From NCBI RefSeq assembly GCF_054482525.1, contig NZ_CM137006.1: a stretch of 64,000 nt of DNA. The stretch is one strand, 5' to 3'. Of the stretch, positions 9,664 to 9,930 are shown in pieces (the stretch's first letter is position 1; each line of letters starts with the position of its first letter). A program made the translations under genes and the position numbers. The notes beneath the pieces are model-generated. The model was not told where the DNA came from. It saw only the letters and a list, made by a program, of their open reading frames with translations, and did no database searches.

Positions 9664-9667
<4 letters not shown>

Positions 9668-9930
9668 AAGAGTTTTTATTTTTATTTCACTCCACGGTCG
9701 GCGTCATACAAACCCGCAAGGCGTTGCAGGCAGCGGGCATGACTTTTCGCGTCAGCGATATTCCCCGTGATTTACGCGGCGGCTGCGGGTTATGCATTTG
9801 GCTGACCTGTCTGCCCGGCGAGGAAATACAATGGGTGATCCCTGGGCAGACCGAAGCGATATATTGCCAGCAGGGCAGCGACTGGCAGTGCGTGGTGCAT
9901 TACGATTCAGAAGCGTCAACCAGGCAATAA
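9664..9930 (+). CDS. small hypothetical protein, DUF3343-like (putative Se/S carrier-like), translationally coupled to yjiL
   Basis: 88-aa ORF whose ATG overlaps the yjiL stop (ATGA at 9664-9667); MKEFLFLFHSTVGVIQTRKALQAAGMTF...; family assignment from memory only. Confidence 0.45.

Follow-up and report, generated by a model that had tools for sequence, protein, structure and literature searches.

The double-cubane cluster protein (DCCP) system is described in the review by Dobbek (PMC7317905) as having two components, with YjiM/YjiL as a two-gene association and no mention of a small third cistron. ATP-driven electron transfer has been demonstrated for a homologous system. The DUF3343 family was proposed by Lin et al. 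2015 (PMC5322559) to act as a selenium/sulfur (Se/S) trafficking chaperone with one highly conserved Cys, and was linked there with Sec lyase and YedF. In the STRING table of the same paper for Slackia, DUF3343 is tied to a 'CoA-substrate-specific enzyme activase' and a 2-hydroxyglutaryl-CoA dehydratase subunit. Kayrouz et al. place duf3343 in the top five genes most often overlapping selD, and a preprint by Haft finds 955 of 970 NF040772 double-cubane proteins in SelD-containing genomes and suggests that these proteins take part in the processing of selenium compounds. Papers up to 2022 state that no member of DUF3343 has been experimentally tested, and our literature search found no functional study of the family or of sulfur or selenium binding or transfer by it. 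Here we analyze ytiA, a small DUF3343 gene that overlaps the end of yjiL in a 64,000-nucleotide stretch of contig NZ_CM137006.1 (the window; positions are counted from its first letter). The results establish ytiA as a real, conserved gene and the third cistron of a yjiM-yjiL-ytiA operon, and YtiA is very likely a functional partner in that operon. The best-supported reading of its role, to which we assign a probability of about 45%, is that YtiA may be an accessory single-Cys carrier of chalcogen (S/Se) for the YjiM double-cubane reductase.

Conservation of the yjiM-yjiL-ytiA trio

The locus was scanned with a YjiM alignment, one genome per species, which gave 80 loci (59 gammaproteobacterial and 21 from Firmicutes); these were translated in six frames and searched with hidden Markov models (HMMs) built from our own alignments. 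A DUF3343 open reading frame (ORF) directly follows yjiL in 59/59 gammaproteobacterial loci, which cover Enterobacteriaceae, Hafnia, Morganella and Aeromonas and at least 16 genera. In every one of these loci its start overlaps the yjiL stop; the overlap measures 4 nt in 45 of them, and 1, 8 and 11 nt in 11, 2 and 1 loci, respectively. The three-gene unit with YjiM and YjiL suggested in the initial annotation of this DNA therefore stands, and both the reading frame and the overlap are conserved in related genomes. None of the 21 Firmicutes loci, among them those of Clostridium, Enterococcus, Fusibacter and Vagococcus, carries a DUF3343 ORF after yjiL, despite an unusually high amino acid identity of 61-70% between their YjiM and that of Gammaproteobacteria. 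YtiA identity, in contrast, drops to ~31% (Morganella-type) and 35-38% (metagenomic relatives) in the wider gammaproteobacterial group. The combination of high YjiM and low YtiA conservation suggests that the reductase pair was transferred horizontally or is under extreme constraint. Neither the strict overlapped trio in Gammaproteobacteria nor its absence at that position in Firmicutes was found stated in the searchable literature.

The surroundings of the trio vary from genus to genus. HGD-D (383 aa), BcrAD_BadFG (about 255 aa) and Se_S_carrier (78-91 aa) proteins are encoded consecutively in Citrobacter, Klebsiella, Atlantibacter and Kosakonia, with different flanks. The trio is flanked in E. 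coli by yjiN upstream and by yjiK (K-12) or an espX6-like gene (window) downstream, in Hafnia and 'Enterobacteriaceae bacterium B14' (B14) by rluA and djlA, and in Atlantibacter by TIR-domain genes and a pyridine-nucleotide disulfide oxidoreductase gene. Clustering of all flanking ORFs returned yjiN (DUF445) and a DUF2164 gene as the only other conserved neighbours, both within Enterobacteriaceae. Since the trio is kept amid such widely differing flanks, it behaves as a self-contained cassette. A metagenomic YtiA relative of only 35% identity occurs in the same trio, and a second one, 31% identical, overlaps by 4 nt a gene with a YjiL-like C-terminus. In Morganella morganii (locus 7293-10883), a gene for a 1196-aa pyruvate:ferredoxin/flavodoxin oxidoreductase lies directly after the trio on the same strand; this enzyme could supply the activator with low-potential electrons.

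Public annotation already contains both the gene and its assignment to the family, and as a gene call our analysis adds nothing. The statement in the initial annotation that the ORF is unlisted in K-12 was mistaken, as MG1655 (NC_000913.3) has ytiA (b4715, YP_009518833.1, 85 aa) overlapping the end of yjiL. By megablast, positions 9400-10200 matched 5,385 of 5,426 complete E. coli genomes. The best match, at 100% identity, was strain PCN033, in which the RefSeq coding sequence (CDS) WP_000657671.1 occupies exactly the same position; over 7001-15272 the window and PCN033 differ by three mismatches and one 72-bp repeat indel, and by nothing else. An annotated CDS lies under the match in all of the E. 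coli records sampled across the ranking (30/30), under the names 'ytiA', 'DUF3343 domain-containing protein' or 'putative Se/S carrier protein'. Literature on the name 'ytiA' deals nearly always with an unrelated zinc-independent L31 paralogue, and none was found on the E. coli gene. The features of the locus are collected in Table 1.

Table 1. Positions of ytiA, its sequence elements and its two upstream partners in the window
Feature	Position	Strand	Remarks
ytiA allele (DUF3343/PF11823 'putative Se/S carrier')	9664..9930	+	88 aa, ATG start; WP_000657671.1; orthologue of K-12 b4715
ATGA junction (ytiA start over yjiL stop)	9664..9667	+	ATG 9664-9666, TGA 9665-9667
Purine-rich Shine-Dalgarno-like element GAGTGAGAA	9648..9656	+	within the final codons of yjiL; 7-15 nt before the ytiA ATG
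Region matched by the PF11823 profile	9673..9840	+	residues 4-59 on profile positions 2-57 of 69
Cys41 codon	9784..9786	+	the family's only invariant Cys (alignments A1 and A2); in the model, GGCG loop linking short helix and strand 3
Cys44 codon (CGLC)	9793..9795	+	invariant in 22 aligned Enterobacteriaceae orthologues
End of close homology to K-12-type genomes	9874..9904	.	ytiA codons ~71-81, inside its 3' end
yjiM, double-cubane [8Fe-9S] cluster protein (DCCP-type anaerobic reductase)	7739..8890	+	first gene of the unit; PF06050, NF040772, RefSeq CDS
yjiL, ATP-dependent electron-transferring activator ATPase (BcrAD_BadFG/HgdC type)	8900..9667	+	PF01869 256 bits; TIGR00241 362 bits

Translation, regulation and selection

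That an 88-aa ORF starts on the ATGA closing yjiL is borne out by the ORF list and the sequence. The junction reads ...cgccgATGAaagag... / ...aaacgccgATGAaagag..., where the ATG and the yjiL TGA share three bases in a 4-nt overlap. The length of 88 codons alone means little, because 42 ORFs of at least 40 aa, mostly chance frames, crowd positions 6000-13000. The start-over-stop arrangement fits a translationally coupled cistron, and ribosomes ending yjiL would most likely re-initiate on the overlapping ytiA start, tying YtiA synthesis to that of the activator. The Shine-Dalgarno (SD)-like element upstream of the start has a duplex energy with the 16S 3' end of -5.1 kcal/mol and is weaker in the window than in K-12 and O157, where the sequence is GAGGA. 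Over the 59 species, SD-like pairing of the -20..-4 region averaged -6.55 kcal/mol versus -2.78 kcal/mol at control positions inside yjiL; the species compared are related, so the Mann-Whitney p-value overstates their independence. This pairing leaves room for ytiA to be initiated independently of yjiL as well.

Neuhaus et al. 2016 (PMC4765031) found by ribosome footprinting a 'novel' ORF of 267 bp, X070, in enterohaemorrhagic E. coli (EHEC) EDL933, with 53 reads per kilobase per million (RPKM), a gene coverage of 0.52 and a ribosomal coverage value (RCV) of 3.58, and a promoter was predicted there 163 bp upstream of yjiM. The O157 allele of ytiA is exactly 267 bp. Judged by equal length and neighbourhood, X070 is very probably ytiA. 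The yjiML operon is among those directly activated by FNR under anaerobiosis (Myers et al. 2013, PMC3688515). A consensus scan of 7400-10300 for promoters and terminators gave no more sites than shuffled sequence, and no terminator was found after ytiA.

In Nei-Gojobori comparisons between genera, the nonsynonymous proportion (pN) in ytiA codons 1-60 was 0.13-0.29 and the synonymous proportion (pS) was 0.55-0.74. The ratio of nonsynonymous to synonymous rates (dN/dS) for whole genes was about 0.1-0.3 for ytiA, about 0.05 for yjiM and about 0.1 for yjiL. These values clearly point to purifying selection on ytiA, with a constraint weaker than that on yjiM and yjiL.

Family membership and predicted fold of YtiA

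The initial annotation had likened the protein to DUF3343, and an HMM search confirmed the membership: PF11823 (Se_S_carrier) matched YtiA with 48.4 bits and E=6.4e-13 against a gathering cut-off of 25. No second Pfam family, ferredoxin and rubredoxin included, matched at E up to 1, and no NCBIfam model matched. With 88 aa and C41, YtiA agrees with the description of DUF3343 as proteins of about 80-100 aa with one highly conserved Cys. A word-indexed search returned 132 homologues in Escherichia, Citrobacter, Klebsiella, Raoultella, Kosakonia, Phytobacter and Atlantibacter, nearly all with PF11823, and a profile search of 1.84 billion representatives returned 115 proteins at E up to 1e-3. Two alignments were used, A1 with 22 Enterobacteriaceae orthologues and A2 with 36 distant sequences taken from these 115, in which identity goes down to about 20%. 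Residues 1-45 are strongly conserved (LFLFHSTxGV...RKALQAAG..F.V.DIPR.LRGGCGLC) and the C-terminal third is poorly conserved. Across A2, F8, P34 and C41 are the only invariant residues, and G42 is nearly so.

The AlphaFold2 model from the 22-sequence alignment has a mean predicted local distance difference test score (pLDDT) of 87 and a predicted template modelling score (pTM) of 0.77, with a disordered tail from about residue 80. Its topology is beta-alpha-beta, short helix, beta-alpha-beta-beta, a generic ferredoxin-like sandwich. Sequence searches with A1 and A2 found no credible solved homologue, the sole match being a formylmethanofuran dehydrogenase subunit (E=0.14) via a CxxC ferredoxin motif. 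A relationship to the TusA family was rejected, as there was no PF01206 match and no TusA among the structural matches, and YtiA does not show that family's combination of profile match, CPxP motif and two-layer sandwich fold; hhalign gave a probability of 0.3% against E. coli TusA.

The double-cubane partners YjiM and YjiL

YjiM had been called dehydratase-like in the initial annotation. It is better described as a double-cubane-cluster anaerobic reductase, an oxygen-sensitive iron-sulfur enzyme, since it scores 532 bits with NF040772 ('double-cubane-cluster-containing anaerobic reductase') against a cut-off of 350, beside 407 bits with PF06050 (HGD-D). Its seven-Cys arrangement (C40/C59/C78/C108/C273/C302-304/C335), with the spacing C40-x18-C59-x18-C78-x29-C108-x164-C273-x28/30-C302/304-x30/32-C335, is near the published motif, some spacers being 1-4 residues shorter. 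The NF040772 score, the seven-Cys motif and the adjacent BcrAD_BadFG ATPase together identify YjiM/YjiL as a double-cubane system. The longest yjiL ORF begins at GTG 8894, and the RefSeq start is GTG 8900; with the latter start, 9 nt that include a GGAG separate yjiL from the yjiM stop, a gap kept in six other genomes.

Sulfur and selenium context of the family

The YedE/YedF/Sec lyase/SelD neighbourhood on which the family name is based, though membership does not formally require it, was not found around ytiA, whose neighbours in the window are yjiM, yjiL and the espX6-like gene. Among distant family members with a classifiable neighbour on the recovered contig, 4/4 adjoin sulfur/selenium trafficking genes. 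The neighbour is a TusA-DsrE (YedF-like) fusion for P0153, YedE and then TusA for P0161, a YedF-like gene and then a class-V aminotransferase for P0169, and YedE, with a divergent class-V aminotransferase nearby, for P0158; the class-V aminotransferases are of the cysteine desulfurase/Sec lyase type. These four neighbourhoods reproduce the proposal of Lin et al. 2015, and the gene neighbourhoods of the family suggest a putative sulfur/selenium-carrier role.

Clostridium intestinale DSM 6191 (locus 5001-10148) carries an apparent operon, yjiM-yjiL-selD-yedF-DUF3343-yqeC-mocA/ygfJ, whose genes share one strand; they are about 6-12 nt apart except for one pair that overlaps by 11 nt. No second array of this kind was found among the 80 loci. 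This array apparently joins the double-cubane reductase to genes associated with the selenium-dependent molybdenum hydroxylase cofactor. When SelD, YedF, YqeC and MocA of C. intestinale were compared by BLAST with all 80 loci, matches were confined to C. intestinale, and physical linkage of yjiML to selenium genes is therefore an exception. In Acetoanaerobium pronyense (locus 8196-9485, minus strand), the [FeFe]-hydrogenase maturase HydE carries a PF11823 domain (64 bits) as an N-terminal fusion. The fusion lies about 1.3 kb downstream of the yjiM-yjiL pair, on the opposite strand, and adjoins HydF- and HydG-like ORFs (judged by eye from the sequence, not scored).

We found no statement in the searchable literature that two independent comparative-genomic signals linked to selenium converge on one E. 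coli operon. The terms 'carrier' and 'PF11823' do not occur in the Haft preprint, and the DUF3343 literature search did not return that preprint.

Proposed role of YtiA and alternatives

We infer translational coupling, a physical partnership with YjiM/YjiL and carrier chemistry for YtiA, and the steps would be as follows. The yjiM-yjiL-ytiA operon would be induced anaerobically, and the YjiL ATPase would drive an electron of low potential into YjiM's [8Fe-9S] double cubane. YtiA, predicted to be a ferredoxin-like alpha/beta protein of roughly 9-10 kDa, would hold a chalcogen atom as a persulfide or perselenide on Cys41 in its glycine-rich loop. It would then hand the chalcogen to the YjiM cluster to be released by reduction, or take it over from the enzyme, which makes it a candidate substrate or product carrier; the gammaproteobacterial YjiM/YjiL reductase may have recruited YtiA as such a shuttle. 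The carrier mechanism itself is offered tentatively from gene context, and selenium rather than sulfur as the cargo is unlikely. Under the selenium version, Cys41 would hold Se as a perselenide or selenotrisulfide, and reduction of this Se by the double-cubane cluster would provide SelD with selenide. That YjiM, YjiL and YtiA together form an ATP-driven, very-low-potential reductase mobilising selenium is improbable.

The likeliest alternative, itself improbable, makes YtiA a subunit with a regulatory or structural function and with YjiL or YjiM as its binding partner; it might, for example, gate ATP hydrolysis or, like PII proteins, sense a small ligand. It would have no chalcogen chemistry, and Cys41 would be a structural or ligand-contacting residue. 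The best structural matches of the model are PII/GlnK-type and ACT-like ferredoxin folds, which fit such a subunit, and YtiA diverges much faster than YjiM and YjiL, as expected of an accessory subunit.

We consider it plausible but less probable still that YtiA is a maturation factor of YjiM, whose Cys delivers sulfide (for example the ninth bridging sulfur) or helps to build or repair the [8Fe-9S] cluster, with no substrate carriage. This role would account equally well for the one conserved Cys and for the family's sulfur-trafficking gene neighbourhoods; the tight stoichiometric coupling to the enzyme genes agrees with it too, and the PF11823-HydE fusion of Acetoanaerobium provides a metallocluster-assembly context. 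However, Firmicutes with near-identical YjiM have no adjacent copy, and cluster assembly does not explain the link of both the family and the enzyme to SelD.

A small Fe-S or metal-binding redox protein that donates electrons to YjiL via CGLCxxxxC is very unlikely. Enterobacteriaceae alleles do have C41, C44 and usually C49, and the activator needs a low-potential donor, such as could be served where the pyruvate:ferredoxin oxidoreductase gene of Morganella adjoins the trio. Yet Cys44 is replaced by Ala in Aeromonas, by Gly in Morganella and by Ser in Hafnia and B14, and Morganella, B14 and Trabulsiella lack C49, as do some alleles of Klebsiella and Kosakonia. The wider family keeps only C41, and the Pfam search gave no ferredoxin or rubredoxin match. 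The replacement of Cys44 favours single-thiol chemistry, as the carrier reading has it, and disfavours a CxxC dithiol or a metal/Fe-S site.

A chance or decaying frame without function, for which the shortness of the ORF, the truncated variants of 49-62 aa in sequence databases and the poorly conserved C-terminal third might speak, is effectively refuted by the conservation data, with the Pfam match, a frame kept across all 59 species and pN well below pS, and it sits badly with the confident AlphaFold2 model and the published footprint ORF matching in length and neighbourhood.

Haplotype boundary and downstream region

Close homology of the window to K-12-type genomes ends inside ytiA. Megablast matches break off at query position 475 (window position 9874), and the blastn alignment ends at 9904 and resumes at 12853; identity is 80.8% over yjiK-yjiJ (12853-14913) versus 96.9% to K-12 upstream. 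Between PCN033-like and K-12 alleles of ytiA, pS is 0.68 in codons 61-end versus 0.05 in codons 1-60. The last ~18 codons are not the same, the proteins being 88 and 85 aa long, but both keep the W-x-C-[IV]-x-H-Y pattern. By these alignments, ytiA contains in its 3' end a recombination or haplotype boundary, beyond which lie an insertion of 2.9 kb and a yjiK-yjiJ haplotype that has diverged.

Between ytiA and the yjiK-like gene, positions 10192-12591 (plus strand) encode a 799-aa pentapeptide-repeat protein with two internal tandem-repeat tracts, (ATS)n and a 16-aa repeat of the EKQANDSTEKQPSDSI type. Its O157 orthologue is annotated as the type III secretion system (T3SS) effector EspX6, and the espX6-like insertion region is covered by only 635 of 5426 complete E. 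coli genomes. In the repeat region of this gene the window is 72 bp longer than the RefSeq PCN033 record.

Significance and comparison with known systems

The interest of these results lies in the link of a known gene, ytiA, to the reductase, and is modest. The substrate of the double-cubane reductase and the role of DUF3343 are two questions that meet in one overlapped gammaproteobacterial cassette, and the reductase and the DUF3343 family each have independent comparative-genomic ties to SelD. As a non-essential gene of 85-88 codons in the best genetic model, E. coli ytiA offers a cheap experimental handle on both. The selenium version, if true, would provide the first physiological substrate for double-cubane proteins and a missing step of bacterial selenide supply.

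The closest counterpart of the window gene is K-12 YtiA (b4715, YP_009518833.1, WP_000657675.1), which has the same locus, the same ATGA overlap and the same first ~70 residues, with 83% identity overall; the K-12 protein has 85 aa and that of the window 88 aa, the window sequence being, from about codon 71, a divergent haplotype that accompanies the espX6-like insertion. X070 was treated as a taxonomically restricted novel gene (PMC4765031), whereas ytiA belongs to the widespread PF11823. With the PF11823 proteins found beside YedE/YedF/Sec lyase/SelD (PMC5322559), YtiA has in common a score above the Pfam threshold, the size of 80-100 aa and the single conserved Cys. Unlike the PF11823 members of Lin et al. 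2015, the YtiA subfamily stands behind a double-cubane reductase and its activator and not beside Se/S trafficking genes. TusA/YedF (PF01206), small alpha/beta proteins with one reactive loop Cys that co-occur with DUF3343 genes, serve as the proposed working analogy for YtiA. DCCP/DCCP-R of Carboxydothermus hydrogenoformans (Jeoung and Dobbek; PMC7317905), with its seven-Cys motif and archerase-type ATPase, has its E. coli counterparts in YjiM/YjiL. Compared with the published definition of the DCCP system, the gammaproteobacterial loci carry a third small cistron in 59/59 cases, and the Firmicutes loci in 0/21 at that position.
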